IMG/VR virus record: IMGVR_UViG_3300033075_001536
Span: 1 to 64,000 of that record
Strand: one strand, 5' to 3'
DNA: 64,000 bases
Origin: a virus
Taxonomy: Duplodnaviria > Caudoviricetes
This document shows positions 16,732-36,146 of this stretch, piece by piece. Under the pieces are notes generated by a model. The model did not search any database and was not told where the DNA came from. It saw nothing but the letters and a program-made list of their open reading frames with translations. The translations under genes and the position numbers were made by a program. The stretch's first letter is position 1. The number at the start of each line of letters is the position of its first letter.

Positions 16732-16956
16732 TAATTAAAAGATGATATATCGCACTACGGTTTAAAGACCATGTGAGGAAATTCAACACATCTTTGCTTA
16801 AGATGGGAGGCCTAGTAGAAATTCGAACAGTCGCTATCACCATCGAGGATGCAACTCAAAACAGACTAGCGGGTGAGCAACGCAATAATGTCGAGGTAGA
16901 GGCCAGTAGATAAATGATATGTTTAAAAACAGAAAGTTGATTACGATCATTAATTA
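16732..16956 (+). ncRNA. rnpB: Miniaturised RNase P RNA
   Basis: CR-I GAGGAAATTCAAC (16775-16787); CR-IV TAGATAAATGAT; CR-V ACAGAAAGTTGATTAC; P4 AAT(T)CAAC/GTTGATT with the bulged U; P2 ATATATC/GATATGT; P3 CAC..GGTT/GACC..GTG; P1 TAATTAA/TTAATTA; GC-richer than flanks; no ORF. Confidence 0.85.
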
Positions 16957-17012
16957 AAAAAACAGACATGTCGGTTTAATAACAAAGTTTTAAATAAAAA
17001 TTAAAAACAACT

Positions 17013-17159
17013 ATGATTTTAGGTGTTTGTGAACATCTTGAAAAAATGTTAGGAATTCCAGCTCTTCTTGCTAGAATTCTATTTGTTGTGTGGTTATTCA
17101 ATAGTATATCTGCTTTCTGGATATACATACTTATTGCTCTCTTAATATCACTTTCTTAA
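17013..17159 (+). CDS. Minimal PspC-domain membrane protein, not in ORF track
   Basis: MILGVCEHLEKMLGIPALLARILFVVWLF...IYILIALL matches the PspC I.GVC..L....GI....R..F pattern. Confidence 0.75.
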   Translation: MILGVCEHLEKMLGIPALLARILFVVWLFNSISAFWIYILIALLISLS

Positions 17160-17178
17160 ATAAAAAATAAATAAACTT

Positions 17179-17349
17179 ATGGCAAGTCAATCAGCACGAA
17201 TTAGTAAAAGAGAATCATTTCTCGAAGTAGAATCTATCGAAATTCCAAAAACTGGAAACAAAAACGAACAGTATCTACAAATTTTAAAAGAAACCGGAAA
17301 ATCTGCTAGATATAGTGGTAAAACAAATTGTTTTTACATCACTAAATAA
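17179..17349 (+). CDS. 56-aa hypothetical protein, not in ORF track
   Basis: MASQSARISKRESFLEVESIEIPKTGNK...YSGKTNCFYITK*; A-rich leader; fills the gap to the next gene. Confidence 0.6.
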   Translation: MASQSARISKRESFLEVESIEIPKTGNKNEQYLQILKETGKSARYSGKTNCFYITK

Positions 17350-17352
17350 TAA

Positions 17353-17949
17353 ATGGTTAGCAAGGTTCTAAACTTAGTTGCTTATGTACATATTCTGGTT
17401 CCACATCTTGAAAGAAGATTGAACCGGGTATGCTCTGGGTATTCTTGGCCAGCGTACTTTTCAACTGTTCAATTAGAAATAGATGATGAATTTAGCAAAT
17501 CTTATCTTTTAGAAAAGTCAAATAAGTACCTTGGATTTGACTTACTTGATATAGATTATGATCGTATCTATGAAATAGATATGACGGATACTTCTATGTT
17601 TTCAGAAAAGTCAGTTAATCCAAATCCAATTAAAGTAAAAGGTCTAAAAGAAATTACTGATTATTTTATAGAACTTGGTGTGTATGGTAAAATACATGAT
17701 ATTAGTTTTGTTGAACCAGAAACATTTTTTACCTTTAATGATAAAGAATCTGATTTACTTGAAATGCCATTTAGAACACATGGAGCAGATCCTTGGGTCA
17801 ATACCTCTATTAAAGAGTATTATGAAAAATACATTTGTAAAAGAACTTGGAAAAGGAACGACCATACTGCTGGTAATGGCACTTGGGAAAAGGAAGATAA
17901 ACTTCCACAAATTGAAAGAGATTTGAAATTGAGATCTATTTTAGGTTAG
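17353..17949 (+). CDS. Hypothetical protein with RDxKL tail
   Basis: Ends IERDLKLRSILG. Confidence 0.7.
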   Translation: MVSKVLNLVAYVHILVPHLERRLNRVCSGYSWPAYFSTVQLEIDDEFSKSYLLEKSNKYLGFDLLDIDYDRIYEIDMTDTSMFSEKSVNPNPIKVKGLKEITDYFIELGVYGKIHDISFVEPETFFTFNDKESDLLEMPFRTHGADPWVNTSIKEYYEKYICKRTWKRNDHTAGNGTWEKEDKLPQIERDLKLRSILG

Positions 17950-18919
17950 GTTTATTAATTTGCATTTTCTGATACTTTGCCTTTCCGACCTTTTTAAGAA
18001 GATAGTTTTTCTTTCGATTAACTACTGAGTATCCCCATTCTAAAAAATCATCAATCGTTTCAATACTGGAAAAATCAGCTTCATTTTTATTAGCATCTCG
18101 GTATAGAATTTTAATAAATTCTTCATCTGAAATACCTTCAGATTCTAATTCTTGTTTAATGTTTTTAAGTATCCGAGACTTTGATTTACTTCTAAACCAA
18201 TCAATATACTCTACCCAAAAATCACCGGTATTTGATTTTGATCCAACTTGTGCTAAATAAGCATCTGTCTCAGATTTAGTTAGACATATATACATCAGGG
18301 AAGTAAACACATTAAATAGATTTCCACCTCCAGTATATCTTTGCACAATATCACTTGAAAACTCCAATATAGTCGAAGTAACTTCATAATCTTCATAAGT
18401 TAATCCTTTTTGATCAATCTTATAGGATTGGAAAAGGTGTGTCAATTCGTGAGATCCAATTTCATACATTTTTTCAATAACATCTTGCGTAAAATCTTCC
18501 TTGCTTTTTCTAGGGACAAATATTCTAATTTCCATGCCAATTTCTATTCCCTTAGGTGTGTATCTAGGTGATAGTTTATTTTTCTTTGGGTTATCTTTTT
18601 CCCCAAAAGTAAAGCAATATCCAGATGAATTTATTTCATCATCAGCTGATAGAACAAATACTAATTTGATATTCATTCGATGGATATCAAATTTTCTATC
18701 TTTTGTCTTTGGTTTAAAATTAAATATATCTACAAAATTTCCTGGTTTTAATCCTTTTGAATGTTTTCTTTTTCTACCCTCATGGTACCACCATTCAAAT
18801 TTAGGCAAACAAATATCCACAATCTCTTGGCTAAGCTCATCAATGGTATTATTAATCGAGTACTTTTCATTAAGGAAAGTAATCATCTGGCGCTGGTTCA
18901 GGAATGTAATCTTCTTCAT
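17936..18919 (-). CDS. Putative zincin metallopeptidase
   Basis: GSHELTHLFQ (HExxH) and SETDAY; N-terminal MITFLNE. Confidence 0.6.
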   Translation of the reverse strand: MKKITFLNQRQMITFLNEKYSINNTIDELSQEIVDICLPKFEWWYHEGRKRKHSKGLKPGNFVDIFNFKPKTKDRKFDIHRMNIKLVFVLSADDEINSSGYCFTFGEKDNPKKNKLSPRYTPKGIEIGMEIRIFVPRKSKEDFTQDVIEKMYEIGSHELTHLFQSYKIDQKGLTYEDYEVTSTILEFSSDIVQRYTGGGNLFNVFTSLMYICLTKSETDAYLAQVGSKSNTGDFWVEYIDWFRSKSKSRILKNIKQELESEGISDEEFIKILYRDANKNEADFSSIETIDDFLEWGYSVVNRKKNYLLKKVGKAKYQKMQINKPNLK

Positions 18920-20630
18920 CTTGTTTTATTTTATCTCTTACTACTATATATAAAGTTGGATTTTTCGATAAGCTTCCTTCACTAAAATTAAATGACATGA
19001 TTAAATCATCATCCTTTAATCTATCTCTAGCCACCGATAATTCTTCAAAAACTTCAGATATTAAATTATCATAGACATGTCCCATTCTATGTGCACTGGT
19101 ATCTTTTTTAGCTTTTAACGGTATACTTAGTAAATAGTATCCACCAATACTTCCTTGATTTGAACTTGGTCTAACTTCTCCAGTCTTTACCTGTTTTATT
19201 TCACCTGGACAAAGGGATAAAACATCTGCAAATATATCTTTGATATATTGTTCATCAAATTTTTCAAAAAATGACTTTCGGTGCTTTTCTTTTTGATCTT
19301 TTTCTTTTATTTCTTTTAGGTGGTTTTCATAAGATCCACAAACTTGATTAGAAATTGCCTGACAAATTTGATTTCTTGAAATTAAATATCCGCGTTCTGC
19401 CACATCATCAAAATCAAATATCCAATCTATTTCTTTTGGGATATACTTCATAATATAAATATTATACATCTCCTCACCATTTTCTATTGGTGTTTTCCTG
19501 GACTGTCTAATAAAAACATAGAAATACTTACTCTTTTTTGACATTCCAAAATCATCATAAGGATCTTTAATTTCTTCTGGAAGTGTTGCTTTAAAACTAA
19601 TCATATTTTTTATAGCTGCTTGATCAGTGTATTTAAATAAAAATTTACCAGTTGGCTTTAAATCTAACTTTTCAATGGTAATATTATTCTTTTTAAATCT
19701 TTCTGAATTATTTAAATCCAAAATCTCTTTAGATATTTCTGGATCTACCGGATTCTTTTTAAATACATCTTTTATACCTTCATTGGTTGTCTCTGGTAAA
19801 ATTTCTGTTAGTCGAATTAGTATAACTCTATTAACACTTACTTCCATGTTTAAACCTTCTTCCTCCAATCTATCCTTAGTTGCTGCCAATTCGTCAAATA
19901 TATCACCTATTTTTGAATTCATTTTCATATAGGATGGACCATCTGAACTAGAAATATACTCTTTCTTATCTGGATATAGAGTAATGTATATCGGATCACT
20001 TGGAAGTATTCTACCTATTTCATACTCACCACACAAATCAAATACATTGGAAAATTCATCTAAGATAAATTGTTTAGTAAATTTATTTTCAAATTTTTTA
20101 GCTCTTTCTTCCTTTTCTTCCTTTTCTTTTTTCTTTTTACCTGCTTCTATATTTTGTCTCTCTAGTTCTTCATCATATAAAGGTAATATGGTTTTAAATT
20201 TTTCTATGATGTCATCAATTGTTTTAACTTCTATAAAGTTTGAATTGTAATTCATTCTTGTTCTAAGACTACCCACATGAAAATTCACCCAATCATTTGT
20301 AAATAACTGAACTTTATAGGTCTTATCATCATTTTTTAAAACTCCTATAAATATAGGCATGTCAGTTCTTCTAGTTTTGATATTAGAATATTTTACTTCA
20401 AATAGACAAAATACTCGTTTTGTTCCAAGATCTTTTAAATAATCATTTATACGAATTGGTATTTTAAAATTATTATATGGTTCGGAGTATTCGGTATCAA
20501 TTTTGATCATCCATATACCTCTATTCTTAAATTCTATATCATCATTTAATGCAAGAATTCTCCTAGATACTTCCGGATCAATTTTAGATTTTAAAAAATC
20601 ACTATATTTTTCAACTATTCTTTTTTGCAT
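18870..20630 (-). CDS. Tandem-duplicated two-module protein (likely start MQKRIVEKYSDF)
   Basis: IDPEVSRRILALN / VDPEISKEILDLN and FDELAATKDRL / FEELSVARDRL repeats. Confidence 0.7.
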   Translation of the reverse strand: MQKRIVEKYSDFLKSKIDPEVSRRILALNDDIEFKNRGIWMIKIDTEYSEPYNNFKIPIRINDYLKDLGTKRVFCLFEVKYSNIKTRRTDMPIFIGVLKNDDKTYKVQLFTNDWVNFHVGSLRTRMNYNSNFIEVKTIDDIIEKFKTILPLYDEELERQNIEAGKKKKEKEEKEERAKKFENKFTKQFILDEFSNVFDLCGEYEIGRILPSDPIYITLYPDKKEYISSSDGPSYMKMNSKIGDIFDELAATKDRLEEEGLNMEVSVNRVILIRLTEILPETTNEGIKDVFKKNPVDPEISKEILDLNNSERFKKNNITIEKLDLKPTGKFLFKYTDQAAIKNMISFKATLPEEIKDPYDDFGMSKKSKYFYVFIRQSRKTPIENGEEMYNIYIMKYIPKEIDWIFDFDDVAERGYLISRNQICQAISNQVCGSYENHLKEIKEKDQKEKHRKSFFEKFDEQYIKDIFADVLSLCPGEIKQVKTGEVRPSSNQGSIGGYYLLSIPLKAKKDTSAHRMGHVYDNLISEVFEELSVARDRLKDDDLIMSFNFSEGSLSKNPTLYIVVRDKIKQDEEDYIPEPAPDDYFP

Positions 20631-21033
20631 TGACCAAATCAACAATTTTTTTATAATAAATACCAACAGACATTCCTTCTAAATTATTTTGAATAAAAAC
20701 ATAATATCCTAATTCATCTAATCGATTTCTAACTTCAATTAGTTCATCAAATATTTTAATATATTCATCTGTTAATTTTTGTGTGTTTCCATTATATCCA
20801 CCATTTTTAAATTTTAAAATAAGTCCATATCCTTGTCTATCTTTACTAGCATGATATACCCTCATAATAGTATAATTATCCACTGATCTCTTCACAAAAT
20901 TCTTCTCATCACACAAATCCATAACACCATTACATATTCCACGAATTTCTTCTTCGTCTTTAACAACTTGACTAGTCCAAGATTTAAATTCATCCACACT
21001 AACATCTTCAAAAATTGGTTTTAAGTGTTTCAT
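20611..21033 (-). CDS. Single-domain relative of the modules in 18870..20630
   Basis: MKHLKPIFE; IFDELIEVRNRLDELG; AATATATA 21039-21046. Confidence 0.7.
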   Translation of the reverse strand: MKHLKPIFEDVSVDEFKSWTSQVVKDEEEIRGICNGVMDLCDEKNFVKRSVDNYTIMRVYHASKDRQGYGLILKFKNGGYNGNTQKLTDEYIKIFDELIEVRNRLDELGYYVFIQNNLEGMSVGIYYKKIVDLVNAKKNS

Positions 21034-21078
21034 TTTAGTATATATTAAATAGTGATCTTAAAAATCAATATATAGAAT

Positions 21079-21891
21079 ATGTCAAATACACACTATAATC
21101 CAAATGCATCGGAAGTTCCATTTCAACCAAACCAATATGGATATACCATTGAAGAGCTAATTGATTTTGTTCAAAATGATTTAACAGTTGGTTGTGCTCT
21201 TCCAAGACAACTTCAGGACACAGAAATAAGAAGAATTATTGAGACTAGGGCACTTCCTTGGTTTTATAGAAATTACCAATACTCAGTTCAAAAAATGTAT
21301 TTTTTAATTTATAAAGAGGCGTTCTATACTGAAGAATATACAAAGTATAAATATGTGAATATGCCTTGTGAAATACAATCGGTTATTTATTTGTATGAGA
21401 TGAGGGGAATTTCATTGTTTCAGCTTGGTATAAACACACCAAATATGTCAGTTAATCTTGGAGTTACTAACCAACCATACCTATCTTCTTATGTCACCAC
21501 CATTGGTGAATTGGGTGTATATAAGACACTTTTGGATAATATGAGTGATATGATGAATCAACTTAGTAAATTTACTTTAAAACATCATTATAATCAACTA
21601 GCTCACAGACTTCATATACTTACCGATGTTCAATATGATGTGGTGGTAGAAGCTTATGCAAATATACCAAGAGAATATCTTTTTACAGATGATTTGTTTA
21701 TTAAATATGTTACTGGTTTGGCAAAGGTTCAGTATGGTAATATGCTTGGAAGATATGACTTCAATTTACCTGGAGGAACAAAGATTAACTCAGCTGACTT
21801 AATCAGTCAGGGAAAAGAAGAAACTAAAGAAGTGGAAGAAGTGATTAAAGGAATGTCGGACTCAAGTTTCTTTTTTATGGTTAAAAAATAG
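21079..21891 (+). CDS. T4 gp13-like neck protein
   Basis: C-terminal KVQYGNMLGRYDFNLPGGTKINSADLISQGKEE resembles gp13 (LPGG.T.N); AATATATA 21067-21074. Confidence 0.75.
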   Translation: MSNTHYNPNASEVPFQPNQYGYTIEELIDFVQNDLTVGCALPRQLQDTEIRRIIETRALPWFYRNYQYSVQKMYFLIYKEAFYTEEYTKYKYVNMPCEIQSVIYLYEMRGISLFQLGINTPNMSVNLGVTNQPYLSSYVTTIGELGVYKTLLDNMSDMMNQLSKFTLKHHYNQLAHRLHILTDVQYDVVVEAYANIPREYLFTDDLFIKYVTGLAKVQYGNMLGRYDFNLPGGTKINSADLISQGKEETKEVEEVIKGMSDSSFFFMVKK

Positions 21892-21931
21892 GGAATGGTT
21901 ACCATTTAATATATACATTAAAAAAGTATGT

Positions 21932-22801
21932 ATGGAAAAGACTTATATTTATAGCTTATCTGATCCAGTAACAATGGAAACTAGATATATTGGAAAAACA
22001 TCCTATATAAAACAGAGGCTCTATGCTCACATAAAGGAATGTAAATCAAATGGTAAATCACACAAAATATCATGGATAAAGTCCCTCTTAAACAAAGACC
22101 TAAGGCCAATTATAGAAATTATTGATGAAGTTCCAATTTCTGAGTGGGAATATTGGGAATGTTATTGGATAGAACAATTTAAGTCATGGGGATTTAATTT
22201 GGTAAATTTAACAAAAGGTGGCGGGGGCGGAAACGGATATCGACACACCAATGACTCCAAAGAGGTAATGAAACACAAAAAAATTGGAATTCCATTATCC
22301 GAACCCCATAAGGATAAAATATCCGAAGGAGTTAAAGAAAAAATAAAACTTGATCCTAATTATAATAAATGTTATGATAAGACACATTTAATAGATAAAG
22401 ACCTTTTATATCAAAAATATATTACTGAGAATTTATCAATGCCAAAAACAGCTAAATTTTTTAATGTTTCAGAAAAAACAATATTCACAAATTTAAAAAA
22501 TTATAATATTATAAAAGATAAATCGGTTTGGAAACAGCAATGTTCTTCCCACCCAAAAAAAGTTATATTACAATATGACCTATATGGCAATTTAATTAAA
22601 GAACATCTTGGATTAGATAGTATAGAATTTGGTCCAAGTGGTATATCAAAATGTTGCCGAGGAGAAATGAAATCATCACATGGATTTATTTGGAGATATA
22701 GAGATAGTTGGTTTGATCTTGGAATAGATAAATTAAATCATAAATATATGAATAATAAAAATAGAACTAAATATATAGACCATGAACCTACTTCTATTTG
22801 A
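21932..22801 (+). mobile_element. Free-standing GIY-YIG homing endonuclease with NUMOD3/NUMOD1-type DNA-binding modules
   Basis: YIYSL...RYIGKT, ECYWI, LVNLTKGG, HKDKIS, ILQYDLYGNLIKE, ISKCCRG...HGFIWRY. Confidence 0.85.
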
Positions 22802-23228
22802 ATCTTTTACTAGAAAAATGTTAGATGAAAAGGATAAACTATTTAAAGAGATTCAAGATAAATATAAAGAGTCTCTAAAAGAATTTCTACATGAGATTAC
22901 AGATAAATTTACACCCACAAAATTTGAAATTGGACCATCATCAATCTTTAATATATGGTTCAAGGTTGATATAAAAGATGCAGATGAATTTTTTGAAGTC
23001 TTCCATGAAGATATATTTGATAGGATAAAAAGTGAGTATCCTGGATCAGTAACAAAGTTCAAAATTGGACTTAAAAGAAAATTTATGGAAGCTTATCCCT
23101 GGACATATTTTAGACACATTGGTGAACTAGTTGATTGTAATGATGAAGATATTCAAATGGTTTGTGATTATATTAAGGAAGATGGTGTTGATCGCTCACA
23201 CTTCATTATCTGTTTATTTATTTCCTAA
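22782..23228 (+). CDS. Hypothetical protein, paralog of 38678..39166
   Basis: MNLLLFES; [10 protein letters not shown] versus FHEGIFDRIK. Confidence 0.7.
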
Positions 23229-24264
23229 AACTCTTAGACTCTTTCAAGTCTTCAAAAATTTGTCTCTCTTCTTTAGTTAGGTTATTAGGTATCTGTACAT
23301 TTAATTTTATGTATAAATCACCCGTTCCATAATTCATATCTGGAACTCCTTTTCCACCCACACGAAGAATTTTACCATGGTTGGTTCCTGGTTCAATCTT
23401 ATAATTTATTCTACCAGTTGGTGCATCTAACTCAACATCAGTTCCTAGAATAGCATCCAAAACATTGATAGTCTTTTCGGTTACTAGATGGTTACCATCT
23501 CTTCTAAATACTGGGTCTGGAATTTCATCCACTACGATTAATAAATTTCCTGGATTTCCACCACGAATATAATTACCAGCACCTTCCATACTTAAAATAG
23601 TCCCATCATGAACACCTTGTGGAACATCAATATCAATGGTGTTTTCACTTACAAATATGCCTTCCCCATGACAAGACTTACATCTATTCATGATGTTTTT
23701 ACCAGTTCCGTTACAATTATGACACTGAGTAGCTTGTCTTATCTGTCCAAATGGTGTCTGTTGTGTCATAATTCTTTGACCAGTCCCCGCACAAGCGATA
23801 CAATCTCTTATATCCGTTCCGCCCTTTCCATCACAAGGTTTGCATTTATCGTGTCTTTTATATTTTAATTTTTTATTAACTCCGTTTAAAACATCTTGCA
23901 GATTAAGAGATATTCTTATTCTTACATCACTTCCCTTTGGAATAGAATTTCTTCTTGAACGAGACGATCCCATTCCACCAAATAGATCTCCGAAATGTGA
24001 AAATATATCTTCTGGATTAAATCCACTAGAATTAAACCCACCGAATTGTTGACCTGGGCCGGCCGATCCGTAATTATCATATTGCTGCTTTTTTTGAGGG
24101 TCTGAAAGTGTTTCATACGCCTCAGAAGCTTCTTTAAATTTAGCTTCATCACCACCTTTGTCTGGGTGATGTTTAAGTGCCATCTTTCGATATGCTTTTT
24201 TTATTTCTTCTGGAGTTGCTTCTTTCTTTACTCCTAAAACCTCATAATAATCTTTTTGTGTCAT
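23218..24264 (-). CDS. dnaJ: Chaperone DnaJ
   Basis: J-domain HPD, G/F region, four CxxCxGxG repeats. Confidence 0.97.
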
Positions 24265-24277
24265 AACTTATCTATAT

Positions 24278-24293
24278 ATCAAAAATTGTGCCA
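24278..24293 (-). promoter_or_regulatory. Sigma54-like -24/-12 promoter of dnaJ
   Basis: Minus strand TGGCACAATTTTTGAT. Confidence 0.6.
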
Positions 24294-24299
24294 TTTTGT

Positions 24300-24815
24300 T
24301 TAATAACGAAAAACTGTCTTACTTAATTCATATCTTAACATATCCGAAGGGTCAATTAAATCAGCTGGTTTTGTTTCTCCACGATGCCAGATGATTGGTT
24401 CTTGTGTCCCATTCTGATATAACTCAATGTGTAAAGTTGGTACTGAAACACCGTTCATTATTTGTTTAACTCCACCAATCAATTGTCCTTCTTTTATTGG
24501 TTTTCCGAATTTAATATTCTGATCAATTATAATTCCAGAATAATTAATAACACCAGAATTTCCTTCCAATAGAAGTGTATAAGTATTGTTGAACCATGAT
24601 GATCCAGCATTTTCACCAGTGGATATAAACATATCCACCACATCACTTTCCTCAATAGCAAAAATTTCCTGATTCTCTGCGCAATATAAATCTACTCCTG
24701 ATTGATGCTTTCCATCTTTTTGTGAAAACCCAAAACCAGCAGACGATTCAAATGAATATGGTAATCTATGTCTATATCTTTTTATTGGGAACATTATTTC
24801 CAAAATTGCCACCAA
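24300..24815 (-). CDS. M23-family peptidase-like protein, possibly degenerate
   Basis: HQSGVDL (HxxxD), GQLIG, TLHIEL (first His of HxH replaced), IDP. Confidence 0.65.
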   Translation of the reverse strand: MVAILEIMFPIKRYRHRLPYSFESSAGFGFSQKDGKHQSGVDLYCAENQEIFAIEESDVVDMFISTGENAGSSWFNNTYTLLLEGNSGVINYSGIIIDQNIKFGKPIKEGQLIGGVKQIMNGVSVPTLHIELYQNGTQEPIIWHRGETKPADLIDPSDMLRYELSKTVFRY

Positions 24816-25003
24816 GGCTTTAAAATTTTTTCCAATTTTTTATTTCTAATTGCCTTTGCACTATAAAGTTTTTCTATACAACTTTCACAAGTTTGTGGAT
24901 AATCATCACCAATAGTATCATTTATAGTATCCGCATCAAATGTGGTCAATCTACCACATTCCAAGCAACCACAAGTAATTGAGACATCATAGTAGTAACT
25001 CAT
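24794..25003 (-). CDS. Small Zn-ribbon protein with RNKKL tail
   Basis: CLEC...CESC; IRNKKLEKILKPWWQFWK. Confidence 0.65.
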   Translation of the reverse strand: MSYYYDVSITCGCLECGRLTTFDADTINDTIGDDYPQTCESCIEKLYSAKAIRNKKLEKILKPWWQFWK

Positions 25004-25254
25004 TTTAAAATTTCTTCCAATTTTTTATCACGAATGTAATCTTTGTGTTCATTCTTAATTTCAAGTTCTTGAAGTCCGAATGGTCCCATATAATTATACC
25101 TTGAATGACATCTGGTGCAGGTTATATTGACTGATCCACCACCTTCTGGACCTTCCCACCAATCAGTATCCTCACAATTCGGACACTTTAGACCATTGGA
25201 AGGTTCTTCTTTTTCTCTAAAGATTAAATTTTTTACTTTTTCAAATATACTCAT
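25000..25254 (-). CDS. Small Zn-ribbon protein with RDKKL tail
   Basis: CPNC...CTRC; IRDKKLEEILK. Confidence 0.7.
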   Translation of the reverse strand: MSIFEKVKNLIFREKEEPSNGLKCPNCEDTDWWEGPEGGGSVNITCTRCHSRYNYMGPFGLQELEIKNEHKDYIRDKKLEEILK

Positions 25255-25263
25255 TTTGCTAAC

Positions 25264-25704
25264 TTATTGACCTAAAATAACCTTTGGATATCGAATTGGT
25301 TTTCCGTTTAATTTGTACCCTTTACTAACCATCTGAACTTTATCCTTGCCAATTGGTGCAACGGATATTACCTCATGTAAATCAGAATCATATACATCTG
25401 TTTGTATAGATTCGATGTTTTGTGATTTTAGGAAATTATCTACCTTTGATATAATTAGTCTAACTCCTTTTTTAGATTCTTCATCTTTTAAAGCAGATTC
25501 TGCAATATGTAAATCCGAATCAATATCCAAAATAGAGGATATCATTTTAGATTTTATAGAGTGTTCCAATTCTTGTTTTTCACGAACCATTCTTTTTTTA
25601 TAATTATCAAACTCAGCATAGAGTCTCAAATATTTCTCATTCCACTCTTGTTCAACTTGCTCAATTGTTTTTTCAACAACAACTTCTTGTTTTGTTTCTT
25701 CCAT
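25264..25704 (-). CDS. grpE: Nucleotide exchange factor GrpE
   Basis: YLRLYAEFDNYKKR, LHEVI, KGYKLNGKPIRYPKV. Confidence 0.92.
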   Translation of the reverse strand: MEETKQEVVVEKTIEQVEQEWNEKYLRLYAEFDNYKKRMVREKQELEHSIKSKMISSILDIDSDLHIAESALKDEESKKGVRLIISKVDNFLKSQNIESIQTDVYDSDLHEVISVAPIGKDKVQMVSKGYKLNGKPIRYPKVILGQ

Positions 25705-26120: not shown

Positions 26121-26141
26121 ACTTAAACACAAAGTTAATAA

Positions 26142-26627: not shown

Positions 26628-26695
26628 AAATATATTACTCCTTATTTTAATATTATATCTTTTATTTCAAATTTGTTTTTTTAATATATAATTAT

Positions 26696-27898: not shown

Positions 27899-27969
27899 AC
27901 ATTCTGTACATATTTTTAAATTTTAATGAAAAAACAACAAAACAACTTTCGATCATAAATATATATTTT

Positions 27970-27977
27970 TATCTTTG
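27970..27977 (+). promoter_or_regulatory. Bacteroidota -7 promoter element
   Basis: TATCTTTG(CA), 40 nt before ORF 28017. Confidence 0.6.
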
Positions 27978-28016
27978 CAAGTATATTGTAAACTAAAAAA
28001 TAACTAACTAAAGAAA

Positions 28017-28256
28017 TTGGAATATCCCACTCAACTCGAACTCACCACACCTAGTGGAACAGCAAAATTAGAAAAGATCTATTTCACCGAACTTGGTCAT
28101 ATCATGGCTAAGGTATATTATCCAAAACGAAAAGAATGGATAAGATATAACATCGGAAATTTATCAGAAATGACCAACTCAAATCTTGATTTTTCTAATC
28201 TAAACTTCACTAACTATAAAGAAAGGATTTTTAAAAAGGTCTTGGATAAGTGCTGA
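28017..28256 (+). CDS. Hypothetical protein
   Basis: 79-aa ORF with TTG start after an A-rich leader. Confidence 0.6.
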   Translation: MEYPTQLELTTPSGTAKLEKIYFTELGHIMAKVYYPKRKEWIRYNIGNLSEMTNSNLDFSNLNFTNYKERIFKKVLDKC

Positions 28257-28295
28257 GTTATCCGTCATTTTGACGGTTAATATATACACTTAATC

Positions 28296-29891
28296 ATGAA
28301 ACACCTAAAATACTTTAAAGAACATGTTGAATTTGGAGAAACATTACAATCTATGTTTCGTCAGATTGATCATCCTTTAACACAAGCTATTCTTGCTAAA
28401 TATAGAGATCAATTTAGAACCGACTCAACACACAAGTCTGAGTACTCATGGATTGAAGCTTATCCAAATAGCGATGGTTTAATTTCCTTTAAAAGAAATG
28501 GGGAGGATAGAGAATATTCTACTAGAGTTGGTAGAATGGTTCGTTCACTTTTAAATGAATTTCAAATTCCTTATACCGACAAAGATTTGGAAGATATTAA
28601 TAATATCTATCGTTCTTTTCTTGGAGAAAAAACCATTGAAATTTGGGAAGGTGAAAAAGTGGTTGATGCTTATCAATCTAAGAATCATACCAAAGAATTT
28701 AAACACCTTTGCTCACTTGGATCTTCTTGTATGAATGGTGCCTCAAAAGAAGAATTAAAATTCTATACCGATCAGCCAAATATCAAAGTAGCTGTAATGC
28801 TAGATGAATCTGGTAAAATTTATGGAAGATGTGTTCTTTGGAACGCGGATATTGGGGGTGTTCCTGGAAAAACTTTACTGGCAGATAGAAATTATGTAGC
28901 TTCTGAAATTTTAGTTTTCCAGTTTATTCGTTGGTTCAATGAAAATGGTATTGCCTACATAAAGGATGTTTATGATCCAACTCAGAGAAACTATGATGAT
29001 CAGTACCGTCAGGATATTATTTTAAATGGGCAAAGATTTAATCATGCTCATGTTGAAATTGATGGAATAAAAAACTATACTGATTTTCCTTATTTGGATC
29101 ATTTCAGATTTTCTGATGGAAAAGATATTTTTAACTATTTTGAATCTGGTGTAGATAAACCAATTTGTTTTCATCTAGGAAGAGATGGTTTATATAATAA
29201 TTATTTTTTAATTAAAAAATCTCCAAAAACCGGAGAGACCATTAAATATGTTGGAAATACTTTTGATAGAAACCGATTAGGTGATATTGTCTATTCTAGT
29301 TTCTATAATGAGTGGTATTTAAAGGAAGATACCTTTGAAGTTGAATATAAGGTAGGTGGTAAATCATTTAGATATACCTGCCATAAAGATTTTATTCGAG
29401 AAGATGGAAAATATATTGATCGGTATGGAAAAGAACTTACCAGATTTGTAGATATTAATGTAAGTCCGGTTCCAGATTTTACAGATGCTTTTGATCGTAA
29501 AGTTTGGCAGCACTTTTTTATTGAAGCTCTTAGAGAATCTATTGGACTATATACCTTTGATAGAGTTGAATTTAATAAATACGATAATTATTACAATGAT
29601 GGTCCTCTCTCACATTCAAAGGCTAAATTTGAATATAGAAAGAATGAAGTCTTATTCACCTTATATAAATATGTTTCTAAAAATAATTTTTGGAAAAGAG
29701 GCAAAGGTGGTGTTGAAAAAGAAGGATATTCAAAACCATATCAATGTAGATTAAAAATTTATCCAACTAGAGTTATTTTTGAAATGACCAATCGTGTTGG
29801 AAAAACAATGGAATGGAGATATAAAAATTGGGAAGATTTTAATAATCGATCATTTGCCGATATAAGATATTTTACAAATTTACCAAATTAA
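28296..29891 (+). CDS. SCM-family phage protein (paralog 3)
   Basis: MKHLKYFKE; RVGRMVR, LGSSCMN, GRCVLW, LADRNY, FPYLDH. Confidence 0.75.
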   Translation: MKHLKYFKEHVEFGETLQSMFRQIDHPLTQAILAKYRDQFRTDSTHKSEYSWIEAYPNSDGLISFKRNGEDREYSTRVGRMVRSLLNEFQIPYTDKDLEDINNIYRSFLGEKTIEIWEGEKVVDAYQSKNHTKEFKHLCSLGSSCMNGASKEELKFYTDQPNIKVAVMLDESGKIYGRCVLWNADIGGVPGKTLLADRNYVASEILVFQFIRWFNENGIAYIKDVYDPTQRNYDDQYRQDIILNGQRFNHAHVEIDGIKNYTDFPYLDHFRFSDGKDIFNYFESGVDKPICFHLGRDGLYNNYFLIKKSPKTGETIKYVGNTFDRNRLGDIVYSSFYNEWYLKEDTFEVEYKVGGKSFRYTCHKDFIREDGKYIDRYGKELTRFVDINVSPVPDFTDAFDRKVWQHFFIEALRESIGLYTFDRVEFNKYDNYYNDGPLSHSKAKFEYRKNEVLFTLYKYVSKNNFWKRGKGGVEKEGYSKPYQCRLKIYPTRVIFEMTNRVGKTMEWRYKNWEDFNNRSFADIRYFTNLPN

Positions 29892-29895
29892 AATT

Positions 29896-30537
29896 ATGAG
29901 CAAGTATAACAGAACATATCATTTACCATGGAGTCCAGGATCAACCAATGATGATCGTATATCCAAAAGTGTGGAATCACTTTTAGGAATAGACATTGTT
30001 ATTACTGAAAAACTGGATGGAGAAAATTGTGGAATCACTAGAGGTGGTGTTTTTGCAAGGTCTCATGCTGCTTATACAAGCAGTCCTTGGAGTGTGGAGG
30101 TTAGAAAATTACATCAAAGAATTGGAAAAGATATTGATGAGGATGTATTTTTGTTTGGTGAGAATATGGAGGGGATTCATTCCATCGAATATTCTAAATT
30201 AACTTCTTATTTTTATTTATTTGGAGTTCGAGATGGATCTATCTGGATACCTTGGGTTAATGTGGAGGAATATGCCTATCTATTAGATATTCCAACAGTT
30301 CCGGTCTTGTTCAAAGGACAAGTTCAAACCGAAAAAGAATTAAGAGATTTGGTTGAGAGCTTTGTGTCTAAGTCATCTAAACTTGGTGGAAAAATTGAGG
30401 GTGTGGTGGTCCGTAATGCTGGTATGTTCCATAACGACCATTTTTCGGAAAATGTGATGAAGTGGGTTAGGGGAAGCCATGTACAAACAGATATTCATTG
30501 GACCAGAAATTGGAGAAGAGCTAAAGTTGCATTTTAA
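29896..30537 (+). CDS. ATP-dependent RNA ligase family protein
   Basis: KYNRTYHLPWSPG, TEKLDGEN (motif I), GEN, EGVVVR, KWVR. Confidence 0.85.
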   Translation: MSKYNRTYHLPWSPGSTNDDRISKSVESLLGIDIVITEKLDGENCGITRGGVFARSHAAYTSSPWSVEVRKLHQRIGKDIDEDVFLFGENMEGIHSIEYSKLTSYFYLFGVRDGSIWIPWVNVEEYAYLLDIPTVPVLFKGQVQTEKELRDLVESFVSKSSKLGGKIEGVVVRNAGMFHNDHFSENVMKWVRGSHVQTDIHWTRNWRRAKVAF

Positions 30538-30558
30538 ATATAATATATAATTTTAAGC

Positions 30559-30957
30559 ATGAAAAAAATTAAATCATTTGAAGAATTGAACTGGTTTAGA
30601 AAAAAATCCGAGGAGCCAAATATCGATGTTGAATCGGATAAAAATGTTCGATCAGCTTTTGAATCCATCAAATCCACATTTAAACCAGAAAAACTTACCC
30701 TTAAATCAAATGCTGATACAGATGATGAGGAGTGGTTTAAAGAATTTACCTATAAAATAACAGAGTCTTACAATTTTGTATTGTCTAAAATGAGTAATTT
30801 TGATTTATTTAGCTTTAGAAATGCAAATAAGATAAAATATACTATTAAAATAGGCTCTAAAATCGTTGAATGTTCTGACAAATTGTGTGAGGAAATGTTT
30901 GAGTTCTTTAAAGATGAGTACAATAAGAAGAACAAAAAATCTAAGGGTGGAATTTAA
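30559..30957 (+). CDS. Hypothetical protein with CTS-like N-terminus
   Basis: MKKIKSFEE; AATATATA 30542-30549. Confidence 0.7.
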   Translation: MKKIKSFEELNWFRKKSEEPNIDVESDKNVRSAFESIKSTFKPEKLTLKSNADTDDEEWFKEFTYKITESYNFVLSKMSNFDLFSFRNANKIKYTIKIGSKIVECSDKLCEEMFEFFKDEYNKKNKKSKGGI

Positions 30958-33479
30958 ATCTTAAATATTACCCATTCCGTAATAATATATTTACTTAACT
31001 TACTTTTAACTCCTGAAGATTTTGTAAAATTATAGTATTTTTTGGCAAATATACTTGCGATATAGTCTACCGAACTCCACATATCTAATGTTGCTTTTAG
31101 CTCTGGAATTTTCATATCCCACGAAGCAATTTTGGAAGCTAGTTTAATACATTCTTCTTTTTGATTTGTTTTGTATAGAAAGATAAGAGTTGGTTGTAGT
31201 TCCTTTATTCTAAGTGTGATAAATTTTTCGTTTTTAAAACCACCATCTGAATAATTATAGTTTTCACAATTATTTTTCATATGAGAAACCTCTTCCACAT
31301 AATCATTAAAAGAATCTCTATCAAAAATAAACATACTATCTTGATAGTAGTATTCCTTTCTCCTATATCTTCTTTGTCCTCCTCCGTGGTAATCAATTCG
31401 ATTAATATCCTCCAAATTCATACTAGTTATGAAAAAGTATATCTTTTTTCTTTGTTCTATACTTAGAAAATATTCAAATGGCTCTTTTTTATTTGTTGGA
31501 TAAGAAATACATTCACTTAATTTTCCAATAAAGTTGGTATTTCCCCACAAAGGAAATTCCAATTTTTTTAGCTCATCCAATTTATCGAGTTTAGAGTATA
31601 GTAAAATGGTGTTTATATTTATGGTAATTTTATTATACGATTTATTAAATCTATCCAACTTATCCCATCTTTGCACATGTGTTTTCCATTTGTTATAAAA
31701 TTCTTTACACTCACTTTCATATGGATATTTATTTCTAAATAATCTTTCAATTTCTTGGTTATAATCATAGACATCATTTACCTCTTTGACAGCAGATAAT
31801 TGATCACTAGTTAAAAATCCTTTTAGTTTATCAAAATTATAATCTCTGAAGTAATGTTTATTATCTTCCCAATTTTTAAAAAATATATCTCTATATTTTT
31901 CATATCCTAATTTTTTTAATGATTTATATGCATCACAATCATAAGAACGAATATCTGTTAAAAATTTTAATATAGTTTTTTCATCATCAAGATCAAATCC
32001 CATATATCGAATAGTTTGGAATATTGGTTTAATTTCATACTCACTAAATCCATCACGATCACTTTCTACTATTTCAGAAACCTCATATAATGTGCAATCC
32101 TTTGAAGTAACATTATTCCATATAAGATTAAATAAAGTTAGCTCTAGTGAATATTTATTTTGATCATCTCTATCAGAAAATATTCTCTTTTCTCCGACTT
32201 TGAAATTGTCTAATTTATTTTTCCACTTGGTATCTGATATAATTTCTGGTTTACCACCACTTACTATTTTATTAAATCTTTTCTCATAATACAATTTAGA
32301 TATATTTTCACGAACAAACTTTTCAAATTTTGGGTTGGTAATATAGTTGATGATGTCATTTAAGTAAAATTGGTTACATCTTAATAATAAGTTTTTATTC
32401 AAAATTTCTTCATCACTATACTCTTTTAACTTTTCTCTAGTGATTTCAGATTTATCCAATAGATTCCATTTTTCTATTTCTTCTTTTGAGAATTGATTTA
32501 AATCATTCGGTTTATAGGAATTTTTATTTTTAATAATTTCTTGTTTTGTCCAACCATATTTTAATAAGATAAAAACAGATGCCTTTTGCATGTCAATGGT
32601 GTTTTTATTAATGAAGATACTAAGATTTAATCCATACTCAGATAGTAATTTTGATAGATTTTCTTGAGAAACACTACCATCGTTTATATTGTGTGCTGTC
32701 TGAAATGGGTCACTATCCGTTCTACTTAGAGCATAGGTTATTCCTATCTTTCTATTCAGATCTTCTCTGTTCAATAAAAACAAAATAAATTGATAGCAAG
32801 TTTTATCATAGACATAACTTTTAAAAGTAGCATCATTTTTAATGCACCACGCTGAATCACCAGCTAAGATTCTAATTTCCGAAGCACTATATACTCTAAC
32901 TACTAAAACATCCTTTTCTTCTGAGTAATAAATAACATCTGATCCAATTTCTTTACACTTTTTTATAATATCATTTGCTTTTGCATTTGGATCAACCTTT
33001 AGAAAGTTTTTTAATCCTTCTATTAAATCTTTTCTATTTTTATAAGAGGCAATTTTTCTAAAAAATGTAGAACTATCCTTTCGTTTGGATAGTTGACTAA
33101 GTAAATCACTATCCTGTTTAGTTTTTATGAAGCTTTTTTGTAGCTTTGGAAATTCACTGTAAATATGGTGGATACTAGAGTCCAATTTTAACTTCTCTAT
33201 CTCATCAATCACCTCTTCAATAGTATCATATTTAATAAGTGGCTTAGGAAATTTATTTATTTGTGACTGGCTTTTTTGAATAACATCAAAAAATTCTATT
33301 AAGTCTTCAACACTATTATTCTTTTCATATCTAAGATGTGTGAAAAATCCAATATATCCTGGATTCTTTTTTAAAAGCTCTCTTATTTTTATGAAATCTG
33401 GATCAGTTTCAAAAATCGATTTATTTTTTAAAATAGATCTTGCCTTATTAATATCCTCAAATAATTTTATAAATTGCAT
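30954..33479 (-). CDS. Large hypothetical protein with CTS-like N-terminus
   Basis: 841 aa; MQFIKLFED; SAWCI motif; AATATATA 33485-33492. Confidence 0.75.
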   Translation of the reverse strand: MQFIKLFEDINKARSILKNKSIFETDPDFIKIRELLKKNPGYIGFFTHLRYEKNNSVEDLIEFFDVIQKSQSQINKFPKPLIKYDTIEEVIDEIEKLKLDSSIHHIYSEFPKLQKSFIKTKQDSDLLSQLSKRKDSSTFFRKIASYKNRKDLIEGLKNFLKVDPNAKANDIIKKCKEIGSDVIYYSEEKDVLVVRVYSASEIRILAGDSAWCIKNDATFKSYVYDKTCYQFILFLLNREDLNRKIGITYALSRTDSDPFQTAHNINDGSVSQENLSKLLSEYGLNLSIFINKNTIDMQKASVFILLKYGWTKQEIIKNKNSYKPNDLNQFSKEEIEKWNLLDKSEITREKLKEYSDEEILNKNLLLRCNQFYLNDIINYITNPKFEKFVRENISKLYYEKRFNKIVSGGKPEIISDTKWKNKLDNFKVGEKRIFSDRDDQNKYSLELTLFNLIWNNVTSKDCTLYEVSEIVESDRDGFSEYEIKPIFQTIRYMGFDLDDEKTILKFLTDIRSYDCDAYKSLKKLGYEKYRDIFFKNWEDNKHYFRDYNFDKLKGFLTSDQLSAVKEVNDVYDYNQEIERLFRNKYPYESECKEFYNKWKTHVQRWDKLDRFNKSYNKITININTILLYSKLDKLDELKKLEFPLWGNTNFIGKLSECISYPTNKKEPFEYFLSIEQRKKIYFFITSMNLEDINRIDYHGGGQRRYRRKEYYYQDSMFIFDRDSFNDYVEEVSHMKNNCENYNYSDGGFKNEKFITLRIKELQPTLIFLYKTNQKEECIKLASKIASWDMKIPELKATLDMWSSVDYIASIFAKKYYNFTKSSGVKSKLSKYIITEWVIFKI

Positions 33480-33500
33480 TTGAGTATATATTAAACAAAT

Positions 33501-34163
33501 TTAATCGTTAATATAAGTGAATTTTGGATTGGCTCTAAAACTAATCCCAATACAATCTGTTTTTCTACCTGGGTTGGAATAATACTGTGCTCGACCAACC
33601 ACTAATTTTTCTCCCTCAATTTCTAAGTTATTTATCACATCAGTAATTCTTTGAACTTCGGTAGAATTCCCCCTATATCTTATATCTGAGTCAATTTGTC
33701 CAGATGGGTATTCACCCTCAAATGTTGAATAGGTTCGACTCATGTGAAGATTATAATTTCCACCAACTACTTTCTTAAATCTACTAGAAACAATTCTAAC
33801 ATCATTTCCACGAATCTGATAAAATGATCCCTCTTTGAATCCAATTCTTATTTTTAGATGTAAGTTACTACTATATTCATGAAAATAAGCTGGTAAATTT
33901 GGATATTCTTCTTTAAGTCTATCATAAGCAACTTTAAATTCGTCTATTACCTTTATATTTTCTTCAAATGCTTTAAAATATTGATCTATATTTCCTTCTT
34001 CAGATGGATGTAAACTAACTTCAATAGTAATGACCCCATCTTTTTCATGGAAATATCCCAATTTTTCATCCACCATATCCTGGAATATATTTCTTATCAT
34101 GGACACCATATCCTCAGTAGATGAAGATTCCAAAAATTTTTTTATTTTATTTCTGTTTTCCAA
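33501..34163 (-). CDS. Hypothetical protein of the expanded domain family
   Basis: KIKKFLES; IRNIFQDMVDE; YDRLKEEYP. Confidence 0.7.
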   Translation of the reverse strand: MENRNKIKKFLESSSTEDMVSMIRNIFQDMVDEKLGYFHEKDGVITIEVSLHPSEEGNIDQYFKAFEENIKVIDEFKVAYDRLKEEYPNLPAYFHEYSSNLHLKIRIGFKEGSFYQIRGNDVRIVSSRFKKVVGGNYNLHMSRTYSTFEGEYPSGQIDSDIRYRGNSTEVQRITDVINNLEIEGEKLVVGRAQYYSNPGRKTDCIGISFRANPKFTYIND

Positions 34164-34536
34164 AGTAAAGTGTTAAATATTTTTGTGTGAAGTAATCATC
34201 TCCATCATCTGTTGAGAATCCTCCAAATGTCCATCCATCACCAACAATTCTATCTTTTGATTCAATAGAGGTGGTCATTAATTCTGCTAGATTTTCAAAA
34301 TCTTTTTCCAACTCATCATTATCTGAATTACCATAGATAATTTTAATGGATAGAGAGAGGTATGGGGGATGTCCTTTAACATCCGATAAAGTACACTCAA
34401 CTATAATCTCTGTATATCCTAAATCTAAAATGTCTTGTAAATATTCTTCTAGATTTGGAATTTCCTTTAAAGATCTATTTGTTTTATAGTCTTTAAATGT
34501 TAATCGATTAAAATTTTCAAATAGTTTAATTTCCAT
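34147..34536 (-). CDS. Hypothetical protein of the expanded domain family
   Basis: MEIKLFEN; YLQDILDLGY; SKDRI. Confidence 0.7.
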   Translation of the reverse strand: MEIKLFENFNRLTFKDYKTNRSLKEIPNLEEYLQDILDLGYTEIIVECTLSDVKGHPPYLSLSIKIIYGNSDNDELEKDFENLAELMTTSIESKDRIVGDGWTFGGFSTDDGDDYFTQKYLTLYFGKQK

Positions 34537-34571
34537 TAAATCTATATATTAAGTATTTTAATATATAAATT

Positions 34572-35018
34572 ATGTCTAAAAAAGTAGATAGGTTATCCCA
34601 AATTGTTCCAGAAGTTTTTCCCAATATGGTTCGTACCTATAATGGGTTGTTATACGATGGAAATGGAAATTTAATAACAGTCTTATCCCAATTATCATAT
34701 AAAGTTTACACCTGTCTATTAACACAAAATGCTACATCAGACCCAACAGTTGTTGTCTTAGAAAATACAATCGGTGATATAAAATGGATAAGACATTCGA
34801 GTGGTGTATATCATGCATATTTAATAGATGCTTTCCCAGAAAATAAGACTTTCTATTTTTCACAAGCTACACAAAACAACACACCTGATAACGTTTGTGT
34901 CTATATGTCTAGAGGAAATAATGATATAATATCTATATCTACTTTATGGCAAGGATCTGGTGAAATTGATGGTTGGTTATTGAACACTCCTGTTGAAATA
35001 AGGGTTTATAATACCTGA
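34572..35018 (+). CDS. Putative virion structural (beta-rich) protein
   Basis: YKVYTCLLTQ..VLENTIG..PVEIRVY composition; AATATATA 34560-34567. Confidence 0.5.
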   Translation: MSKKVDRLSQIVPEVFPNMVRTYNGLLYDGNGNLITVLSQLSYKVYTCLLTQNATSDPTVVVLENTIGDIKWIRHSSGVYHAYLIDAFPENKTFYFSQATQNNTPDNVCVYMSRGNNDIISISTLWQGSGEIDGWLLNTPVEIRVYNT

Positions 35019-35197
35019 GATCCCTCTTGATTTTGCTCTAATCCATTCAAATATTCTTGAACTTTGTCTTTGTGAATAATTTCATCGGACCATTTGTAAG
35101 AGGTTCCTTTTTTTCTAGCTACAATTACCTTGACCCAATCTTTGGATCCTTCTTGTGTCTTTCTACCGGTATTTGCGTTTTTTGATACTTTTGCCAT
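35006..35197 (-). CDS. DUF4295-family protein (bL38-like ribosomal protein)
   Basis: MAK start, EGSKDWVKVI, SYKWSDEIIHKDKVQEYL match the Bacteroidota DUF4295 pattern as recalled; size fits. Confidence 0.65.
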   Translation of the reverse strand: MAKVSKNANTGRKTQEGSKDWVKVIVARKKGTSYKWSDEIIHKDKVQEYLNGLEQNQEGSQVL

Positions 35198-35210
35198 AAT
35201 TTCTTATATA

Positions 35211-35801
35211 TTAATTTTTTTCAAACTCTTTAAAACTTTCCACATGTTGAAGTTGATATCTTTCCTTCATTCTATCAAGAACCCCATTAATTTGTGAGAG
35301 TATATTGAGTTGTTTTTTATTTAGTTGACGAAGTTCAATAAGTTTTGAAACAATAAATTTTGTCTCATTAAAATATTTTGTTCTAAATTTATCCGAAGCA
35401 GTTGGGTGATCAGATATATTTTGAAGTCTATCACACAATTTAATTAAAAGTGCACCATCCGACATATTAATCATTTTATGTAGAAGATAATTTGCTTTTC
35501 CAACTGATTTAATTTTTTTGTCCGAGGATGAAAGTTCTTGTACAATATCAGCAATTTCTTTTCCAAACTCTTTTAACAAAACTTCATAGGTCACATCATC
35601 AACATCCTCTATTGAATCATGGAGTAAAGATGCGGCTCCTAAAATTGGATTGGTATCTACTCCCTTTAAAATTTGAAAAACTTTACGAACATGTCCATCA
35701 AAATAGGACATTTTTGTGAATTTTCTATTTACACCATGATGGGCTTTAATTGCAAAGTCCCAAGCTTTCTTTTCTAAGTCTGTAATTGGTTTGACTGCCA
35801 T
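35211..35801 (-). CDS. HD-domain small alarmone hydrolase (SpoT-HD/Mesh1-like)
   Basis: FAIKAHHG..RK...Y...H, LLHDSIED, FGKEIADIV.ELS, IKLCDRLQN. Confidence 0.85.
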   Translation of the reverse strand: MAVKPITDLEKKAWDFAIKAHHGVNRKFTKMSYFDGHVRKVFQILKGVDTNPILGAASLLHDSIEDVDDVTYEVLLKEFGKEIADIVQELSSSDKKIKSVGKANYLLHKMINMSDGALLIKLCDRLQNISDHPTASDKFRTKYFNETKFIVSKLIELRQLNKKQLNILSQINGVLDRMKERYQLQHVESFKEFEKN

Positions 35802-35852
35802 TAACTATATATTTATTTAAAGATACGGAAAATTTTCTTTAATATATAAGAG

Positions 35853-36146
35853 ATGATGTCAAAAACCGAAATGGATGAACTTTTTAAATCAGGTAAGAAA
35901 TTATACTCACCTTTGATTAAATTAGTTTATTTACCAGCTGCTGAAAAAGAGATAATTATATCTGCACCAATACGGACATTTAAAAGAGCTGTAGATAGAA
36001 ATAGAATTAAAAGACTCATTAGAGAATCTATCAGAAAGATGGAAATTGGTAAATATCATCTAGCTATTATCTATATTGGAACTAAAGTGGAATCATTTGA
36101 AAATATAAAAGCTGAATTAGAAAAAATTATTCCTAGAATAAAATGA
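35853..36146 (+). CDS. rnpA: RNase P protein component
   Basis: LFKSGKK and RNR motif FKRAVDRNRIKRLIRESIR; 97 aa, basic. Confidence 0.9.
   Translation: MMSKTEMDELFKSGKKLYSPLIKLVYLPAAEKEIIISAPIRTFKRAVDRNRIKRLIRESIRKMEIGKYHLAIIYIGTKVESFENIKAELEKIIPRIK

Follow-up and report, generated by a model that had tools for sequence, protein, structure and literature searches.

A reduced RNase P RNA and a short RnpA protein in a tailed-phage contig: a probable phage-encoded RNase P

The 64,000-nucleotide (nt) stretch of DNA analysed here, in the following called the window, comprises positions 1 to 64,000 of the IMG/VR virus record IMGVR_UViG_3300033075_001536 (Duplodnaviria; Caudoviricetes), a single contig of 170,678 bp. 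It carries a gene for a small RNA with the landmarks of a ribonuclease P (RNase P) RNA and, 18.9 kb further on, an rnpA gene for a short RNase P protein (RnpA). A first-pass annotation had placed an RNA without open reading frames (ORFs) at 16732-16956 and an RnpA with an intact RNR motif about 19 kb away, and both genes hold up. The covariance model built in this work (R1) places the 223-nt RNA gene at 16734-16956 on the plus strand with 202.7 bits, as its sole match in the whole contig, and no ORF of at least 60 amino acids (aa) overlaps it. The elements of the RNA and the other features of the locus are collected in Table 1.

Table 1 Elements of the RNA gene at 16734-16956, rnpA and other features of the window
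Feature	Position	Strand	Remarks
TATATTTG, candidate Bacteroidota-type -7 promoter element	16711-16718	+	16 nt upstream of RNA
P1 5′ strand	16737-16743, pairs with 16946-16952	+	7/7 pairs double-changed, 79 % of cells paired; internal loop in AT-rich members
P2 5′ strand	16746-16751, pairs with 16916-16921	+	98.7 % paired, 4/6 pairs double-changed
P3 hairpin	16753-16775	+	Apical stem GGU/ACC here, CCA/UGG in LR756502; 97.7 % paired
CR-I and P4 5′ strand, bulged U16783	16775-16788	+	GAGGAAA at 16775-16781; aligns to E. coli M1 61-GAGGAAAGUCC
P4, AAU(U)CAAC with GUUGAUU	16780-16787 with 16936-16942	+	96 % paired, 6/8 pairs double-changed; not in search model
P5 5′ strand	16789-16792, pairs with 16848-16851	+	98 % paired, 4/4 pairs double-changed
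P6 pseudoknot 5′ strand (J5/7, UUGCU)	16794-16798, with P17 loop 16876-16880 (AGCAA)	+	100 % paired in 12 sequences, 5/5 pairs double-changed; not in search model
Specificity-domain remnant	16802-16844	+	P7 (16802-16806 with 16840-16844), hairpin 16809-16832, conserved CGCUUGCAC-type joiner
P15	16855-16857 with 16899-16901	+	
P16	16864-16866 with 16890-16892	+	
P17 hairpin	16869-16883	+	
L15 GGU	16895-16897	+	Invariant in nine-sequence alignment A3; aligns to M1 GGGUAG
CR-IV (TAGATAAATGA, J15/2)	16907-16917	+	Aligns to M1 UAGAUGAAUGA
CR-V	16929-16944	+	ACAGAA (16929-16934), then GTTGATTA; P4 3′ strand (16935-16942), then AC
RNA ligase ORF	29896-30537	+	PF09414, 101 bits; 5 kb upstream of rnpA
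Phosphohydrolase ORF	35211-35801	-	HD_4 (RelA/SpoT-type HD); matches phrog_990, metal-dependent phosphohydrolase; divergent from rnpA
TAATATATAA box	35840-35849	+	3 nt before rnpA start codon; phage-specific upstream motif
rnpA, 97 aa	35853-36146	+	PF00825 (Ribonuclease_P) 50.7 bits, cut-off 22.3
ORF, 190 aa	36143-36715	+	Overlaps rnpA stop by 4 nt (ATGA); no Pfam or PHROG family
Other TAATATATAA sites (examples among the 15)	4919-4928, 12877-12886, 26682-26691, 57817-57826		

Two short motif scans of IMG/VR yielded 12 loci, all 12 of which contain a copy of the RNA; the matches, nine from the first scan and four from the second, proved without exception to be true copies. In all, 13 homologs of the window copy were obtained from huge-phage records. 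The structure was drawn by hand on a nine-sequence alignment (A3), and R1 was confined to the nested helices. This search model leaves out the pseudoknots P4 and P6; the pair counts, made on the 55-pair full structure in a model alignment of 14 sequences with 55-78 % identity to the window copy, include both. Standard pairs fill 95.6 % of the cells (55 pairs, 14 sequences), compared to 34-42 % in controls with the 3′ partners shifted by one to three columns. Double changes are found in 44 of the 55 pairs, and the observed values were reached by none of 500 shuffles. The first-pass annotation had looked to covariation across related phages for a decision, and these counts provide it. Since G-U cells outnumber A-C cells by 26 to 5 in the same alignment, the plus strand is fixed as the strand of the RNA. 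A further compensatory pair (C16870T and G16882A, in P17) is seen in a relative from a sediment metagenome, on a low-depth contig that gives it weak support. Single-sequence minimum free energy folding gave a z-score of -0.17, which is uninformative because the RNA is pseudoknotted. The RNA is thus supported as a conserved, covarying RNase P catalytic domain.

The recognition by Rfam RNase P models that had been anticipated was seen only in part. At gathering thresholds nothing in the whole 64-kb window was matched, rRNA included. In a permissive E-value scan of 16600-17100 the RNA was aligned end to end with the full archaeal RNase P model RF00373 (32.4 bits, E 1.2e-7), the alignment deleting most of the specificity-domain part of the model; RF00373, and not RF02357, was the best clan match kept. 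The copy of the RNA in LR756502 likewise gave an end-to-end alignment with an Rfam RNase P model (E 1.5e-6).

By its elements the RNA has the architecture of the catalytic domain of a bacterial type A RNase P RNA (P1-P6 and P15-P17), with P18 and about two thirds of the specificity domain gone. The E. coli M1 RNA (type A, rnpB, RF00010), taken as reference from NC_000913.3, has the same order and pairing of P1-P5, the P6 pseudoknot, P15-P17 and the bulged U in P4, and its CR-I, CR-IV, CR-V, J5/15 adenosines and L15 GGU align with those of the phage RNA. CR-I, CR-IV (AGAnnAAUGA) and CR-V (ACAGAA...UUA) are nearly invariant across the alignment and could be aligned to M1; the three corresponding landmarks, GAGGAAA, TAGATAAATGA and ACAGAA...TTA, had already been picked out in the first-pass annotation and are all in place. 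The same holds for P4, which had been described as AAU(U)CAAC/GUUGAUU, with a bulged U and compensatory change: the sequence matches exactly and the helix covaries. P6, formed between J5/7 and the P17 loop, is present together with the P15-P16-P17 arm (98-100 % paired in its three helices) and the L15 GGU, as in type A. Two alternative pairings, a local CAUC/GAUG hairpin and GGCCU/AGGCC, were rejected, being mismatched in most homologs.

The phage RNA is considerably shorter than M1 (223 compared to 377 nt), and, unlike M1, it is virus-encoded and remains below the Rfam threshold. P18 is absent: CR-IV begins 5 nt past the 3′ strand of P15, and M1 ~304-327 has no counterpart. The P10-P12 module with CR-II/CR-III is absent as well, and in place of the P8-P14 region of M1 (~155 nt) the phage RNA has P7, one hairpin and a joiner, i.e. 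~50 nt between the P5 strands. No CR-II- or CR-III-like sequence was recognised in this remnant by eye, without separate scoring. P7 (5 bp) and the base of the remnant hairpin covary, and the hairpin is ~90 nt longer in three of the homologs (L005, L008 and L012). A similar reduction is found in the archaeal type T RNA of Pyrobaculum (RF02357), which is likewise ~200 nt long and has kept the catalytic domain and lost nearly all of the specificity domain. Type T RNAs are archaeal and chromosomal and work with archaeal proteins, whereas the phage RNA appears to be derived from bacterial type A, as judged from P6 and the L15 GGU, and comes with an RnpA of bacterial type. Loria and Pan are said to have found in 2001 that a B. 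subtilis RNA consisting of the catalytic domain only is active with its protein, and the Pyrobaculum type T RNase P was reportedly described by Lai et al. in 2010 as active without a specificity domain. Activity of the phage RNA is plausible in view of these precedents.

The RNA varies considerably among its relatives. In one rnpA-bearing sublineage (L021, which is LR745206 502060-502279, L047 and L048) the GAGGAAA of CR-I is replaced by GGAGAAAC, P3 has almost disappeared and CR-V is GCAAAA; the RNA of this sublineage is a further-diverged form. A ~410-nt relative (L010:4367-4775, IMGVR_UViG_3300049845_000214) has the same 5′ and 3′ core with a ~240-nt insert of the size of a specificity domain. 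With filters off, R1 gave no useful alignment with either this variant or E. coli rnpB, because R1 is global and the specificity domains differ. In metagenome DNA contigs from related strains (X3, X4 and X5) the flanking ORFs are ~93 % identical and the RNA copy is less than 80 % alike (window 16720-16997); in one such contig this copy amounts to 230 other letters, which start with the AUCGC motif. Metagenomes whose DNA carries the sequence are labelled sediment, wastewater, river and lake. Judged from the strain comparisons, the gene of the RNA seems either to change more quickly than the genes beside it or to be exchanged.

On the protein side, the PF00825 match covers residues 3-96 of the 97-aa product and profile positions 9-108 of 109. 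The RNR motif (A-x2-R-N-x2-K-R-x2-R) is intact, as had been claimed, and reads KRAVDRNRIKRLIRE; A46, V47, D48, R49, N50, K53 and R54 are invariant in 16 phage and Bacteroidota RnpA sequences. A search of the PDB by sequence gave no match at E ≤0.01. With the AlphaFold2 model (pLDDT 92.6), every one of the best 16 PDB matches found by Foldseek was an RNase P protein (TM 0.69-0.85), the holoenzyme chains 3q1q_A and 7uo0_A among them, and the TM values to 6d1r, 1a6f and 3q1q_A were 0.79-0.85. By family signature and predicted fold, the ORF is a true RnpA. It shares family, RNR motif and alpha-beta sandwich fold with bacterial RnpA/C5 (PF00825; 1a6f, 6d1r, 3q1q_A, 7uo0_A) and differs from it in length (92-102 aa in the phage proteins, ~115-135 aa in bacteria) and in that the gene is not beside rpmH or yidC. 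The nearest named relatives are RnpA proteins of Bacteroidota (34-40 % identity). Compared to these, ~15 N-terminal residues and two internal segments are gone, while the RNR helix is almost identical letter by letter. The short forms, found on contigs of up to 634 kb and spanning 37-74 % identity, make up one side of a single branch in a quick tree (SH-aLRT 92). The phage protein is probably derived from a Bacteroidota RnpA and shortened. No PHROG family covers it or the neighbours of the RNA gene.

The contig bears a T4-type major capsid gene (PF07068) at its end. Most ORFs of the window have no Pfam family, and those that can be recognised (type II topoisomerase subunits, DnaK, DnaJ, ClpP, peptide deformylase and RNA ligase) form a gene set typical of huge phages. 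Since DnaK, DnaJ, ClpP, peptide deformylase and type II topoisomerase are cell-like, the contig could also be imagined as a piece of a reduced bacterial genome that was mis-binned and has an ordinary small RNase P. We regard this as scarcely worth entertaining, given the capsid gene in a record classed as viral, the many ORFs without a Pfam family and the lack of rRNA or any other Rfam family at threshold. Homologs of the RNA and of RnpA are moreover found in phage genomes that were curated and measure 595-642 kb (Al-Shayeb et al. 2020; PMC7162821); 'uncultured phage' genomes with such homologs are LR756502 (642 kb), LR756511 (595 kb) and LR745206 (635 kb). When the 5′ signature of the RNA was searched in 185,579 prokaryote species genomes, 11 matches were obtained, all by chance and inside coding sequence, and none was matched by R1 or an Rfam RNase P model. 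As far as tested, the RNA appears to be specific to viruses.

Five huge-phage records of 259-642 kb (LR745206, LR756502, LR756511, a complete 527-kb IMG/VR genome and a 259-kb record) were searched whole; R1 found one copy of the RNA in each, and rnpA was present in two of the five. A search for related loci with the single RnpA sequence found nothing, while an alignment-based profile search of IMG/VR gave nine more rnpA-bearing contigs. Five of the nine were searched whole: the RNA was found in near-complete genomes of 476 and 483 kb and in a 58-kb fragment, and was not found in the remaining two contigs, both of which are incomplete. RNA and rnpA thus occur together in six records, namely the present contig, LR756502, LR745206, the 476- and 483-kb genomes and the 58-kb fragment, and every complete or near-complete rnpA-bearing record searched also holds the RNA. 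RnpA seems to occur only where the RNA is, and the RNA is often alone.

That many phages hold the RNA without the protein gene, and that the RNA has retained its protein-binding surface (CR-IV, CR-V and P3), would also be expected of a non-catalytic decoy which soaks up host RnpA and so shuts down host tRNA maturation. We consider such a role very improbable. Conservation is not limited to protein binding and reaches features of catalysis and docking (P4 with its bulged U and helix geometry, P6 and the L15 GGU), the phage adds RnpA instead of removing it, and blocking RNase P would harm a phage with dozens of tRNA genes of its own.

The two genes differ in what lies upstream of them. The host-type TAnnTTTG element that the first-pass annotation had reported before the RNA is present; the motif alone, however, is no commoner in the AT-rich window than expected by chance (119 copies compared to 100 +/- 9). 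The weight of TATATTTG as a promoter element comes instead from three homologs (L004, L006 and L009), in which TATCTTTG stands at the same distance upstream of the RNA (13-16 nt, the window copy included); in L007, TATAAT is found instead. A scan for sigma-70 promoters and terminators near the RNA gave nothing above shuffles. Several copies of the RNA end in P1 followed by a U run, or precede a strong terminator. Before rnpA, the AATATATA box noted earlier proved to be real: TAATATATAA is found 15 times in the window, where 1.7 copies would be expected, and nearly every copy stands 3-15 nt ahead of an ORF start on its own strand. It probably serves as a promoter or start-site motif specific to the phage, and is reminiscent of the T4 late promoter element TATAAATA. 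As the upstream motifs differ (TAnnTTTG-type and TAATATATAA, respectively), the RNA looks host-transcribed and rnpA looks phage-programmed.

The five whole huge-phage records have 50-63 tRNA matches each, and their tRNA genes often lie in arrays with spacers of a few bases. In a 215-kb record (IMGVR_UViG_3300045016_000151, L012:1759-2026) the RNA itself lies between two tRNA-Glu genes, 4 nt after one and 3 nt before the next, within an array of 16 tRNAs. Based on this arrangement, this RNA would be released from the very precursor that it is predicted to process. The 410-nt variant follows a tRNA array in which all genes encode CCA, unlike the tRNA genes of the phages with the mini RNA. An odd tRNA proposed at 57694 of the window has to be withdrawn: ARAGORN detected no tRNA in the window, and Rfam gave only noise at E up to 10 on 57600-57900. 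What is found there is a perfect hairpin with a T run (57652-57689), terminator-like, just after the ORF 56782-57666.

With the domain that reads the tRNA elbow gone, the enzyme might have changed its substrate and cut phage polycistronic transcripts, host mRNAs or tRNA-like structures in place of ordinary pre-tRNAs. It could be said for this that CR-II and CR-III were not recognisable by eye, that a conserved phage-specific module, expanded in L005, L008 and L012, stands in their place, and that the RNA ligase in the same window offers another RNA-directed function. The elements that hold the acceptor stem and the 3′ end (L15 GGU, J5/15 adenosines and P4 core) are nevertheless conserved, and the RNA tracks phages rich in tRNA genes and in some of them lies inside the tRNA arrays, which makes a changed substrate quite improbable in our view.

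We consider it likely that the phage encodes its own RNase P, composed of a minimal RNA derived from type A and a shortened RnpA, and that this enzyme serves the maturation of phage tRNAs. That a phage encodes a reduced RnpB-like RNA together with an RnpA had been proposed in the first-pass annotation, and covariation, the family signature and fold of RnpA, the T4-type capsid gene in a virus record and the co-occurrence in six records bear this out. The conserved catalytic and substrate-docking elements are explained better by a phage RNase P than by any of its rivals. We infer from the sequences how transcription, assembly of the two subunits, catalysis and choice of substrate would proceed. 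The RNA would be transcribed from a host-type promoter, fold into the P1-P6/P15-P17 core and bind RnpA through the conserved CR-IV/CR-V/P3 surface. Until the phage RnpA is made from its phage-specific promoter, and in relatives without rnpA, host RnpA would be the partner; thereafter the phage RnpA would take this place. The enzyme would then cut the 5′ leaders off the many, tightly packed tRNA precursors of the phage and so may keep the supply of tRNA during infection independent of the host enzyme.

Several observations weigh against a phage RNase P of this kind. The best match of the RNA to the Rfam RNase P clan (CL00002) is far below every RNase P threshold in Rfam (84 bits for RF00373). 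Most tRNA genes of these phages have no encoded CCA, though the CCA-binding L15 GGU is conserved; it is possible that CCA is added before cleavage. The window contig, a fragment of 170 kb, shows only one tRNA gene (tRNA-Cys at 94325-94396). A distance of 19 kb separates the RNA gene from rnpA (90 kb in LR756502), and the two apparently have promoters of different types. Finally, the RNA occurs without rnpA in three of the five whole records (LR756511, the complete 527-kb genome and the 259-kb record), and pairing of RNA and protein is therefore optional. The suggestion of the first-pass annotation that the RNA may also use host RnpA fits these three records.

The lack of rnpA in these three records, the unlinked genes and their different upstream motifs would also suit two genes that are not a dedicated pair, the mini RNA working normally with host RnpA and the phage RnpA acting mainly on the full-size RNase P RNA of the host, so as to boost or redirect the host enzyme. 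Because its RNR motif is almost identical to that of Bacteroidota RnpA, the phage protein should bind host RNA too. We nevertheless find this arrangement unlikely, as the RNA accompanies rnpA in every complete or near-complete record searched, and as a distinct clade of shortened RnpA has been kept over deep divergence, which suggests adaptation to a specific partner. The phage RNase P proposed above could even be taken one step further. We suggest tentatively, and with rather more doubt than confidence, that the RNA and RnpA form an orthogonal, virus-specific holoenzyme in which the shortened protein and the phage-specific module take over substrate recognition. Tightly packed tRNA precursors that lack CCA, and perhaps further RNAs of the phage, would thereby be matured independently of the host, e.g. 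at times when its RNase P is in short supply or shut off.

The surroundings of rnpA offer some further observations. Since it overlaps rnpA by 4 nt (ATGA), the 190-aa ORF that follows is probably translationally coupled to it; this neighbour is not conserved in LR756502 or LR745206. The phosphohydrolase ORF lies on the other side, and the RNA ligase ORF, taken together with the RNase P genes, suggests a theme of tRNA repair and maturation. In LR756502, a 219-aa ORF upstream of rnpA resembled a CCA-adding nucleotidyltransferase by eye and was rejected as such, having no Pfam match.

To our knowledge, RNase P is regarded as an enzyme of cells, and a universal one. The precursors of phage tRNAs, including those of T4, are classical substrates of host RNase P. 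Neither full-text searches of the literature nor the main text and part of the supplement of Al-Shayeb et al. (2020) yielded an account of an RNase P RNA or RnpA encoded by a phage. The genes are unannotated in the published genomes LR756502, LR756511 and LR745206 because the RNA is below the Rfam thresholds and RnpA has no PHROG family. What is added here is a phage-encoded RnpA on the same contig as a mini RNase P RNA, a pairing that recurs in six records.

The viral take-over of translation is known to include tRNAs, synthetases and ribosomal proteins; a virus with both subunits of RNase P would add to these the processing of tRNA by a ribozyme. A type A core of ~220 nt without P18 or the reader of the tRNA elbow, together with a 97-aa protein, would be a compact system in which to ask how little of RNase P suffices for specific cleavage, and the pair may provide a test bed for how a protein compensates for a lost specificity domain. 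If the two were indeed an orthogonal holoenzyme, they would make up the first ribonucleoprotein ribozyme of the translation apparatus to come from a virus, and at the same time a minimal RNase P of two parts that occurs in nature.

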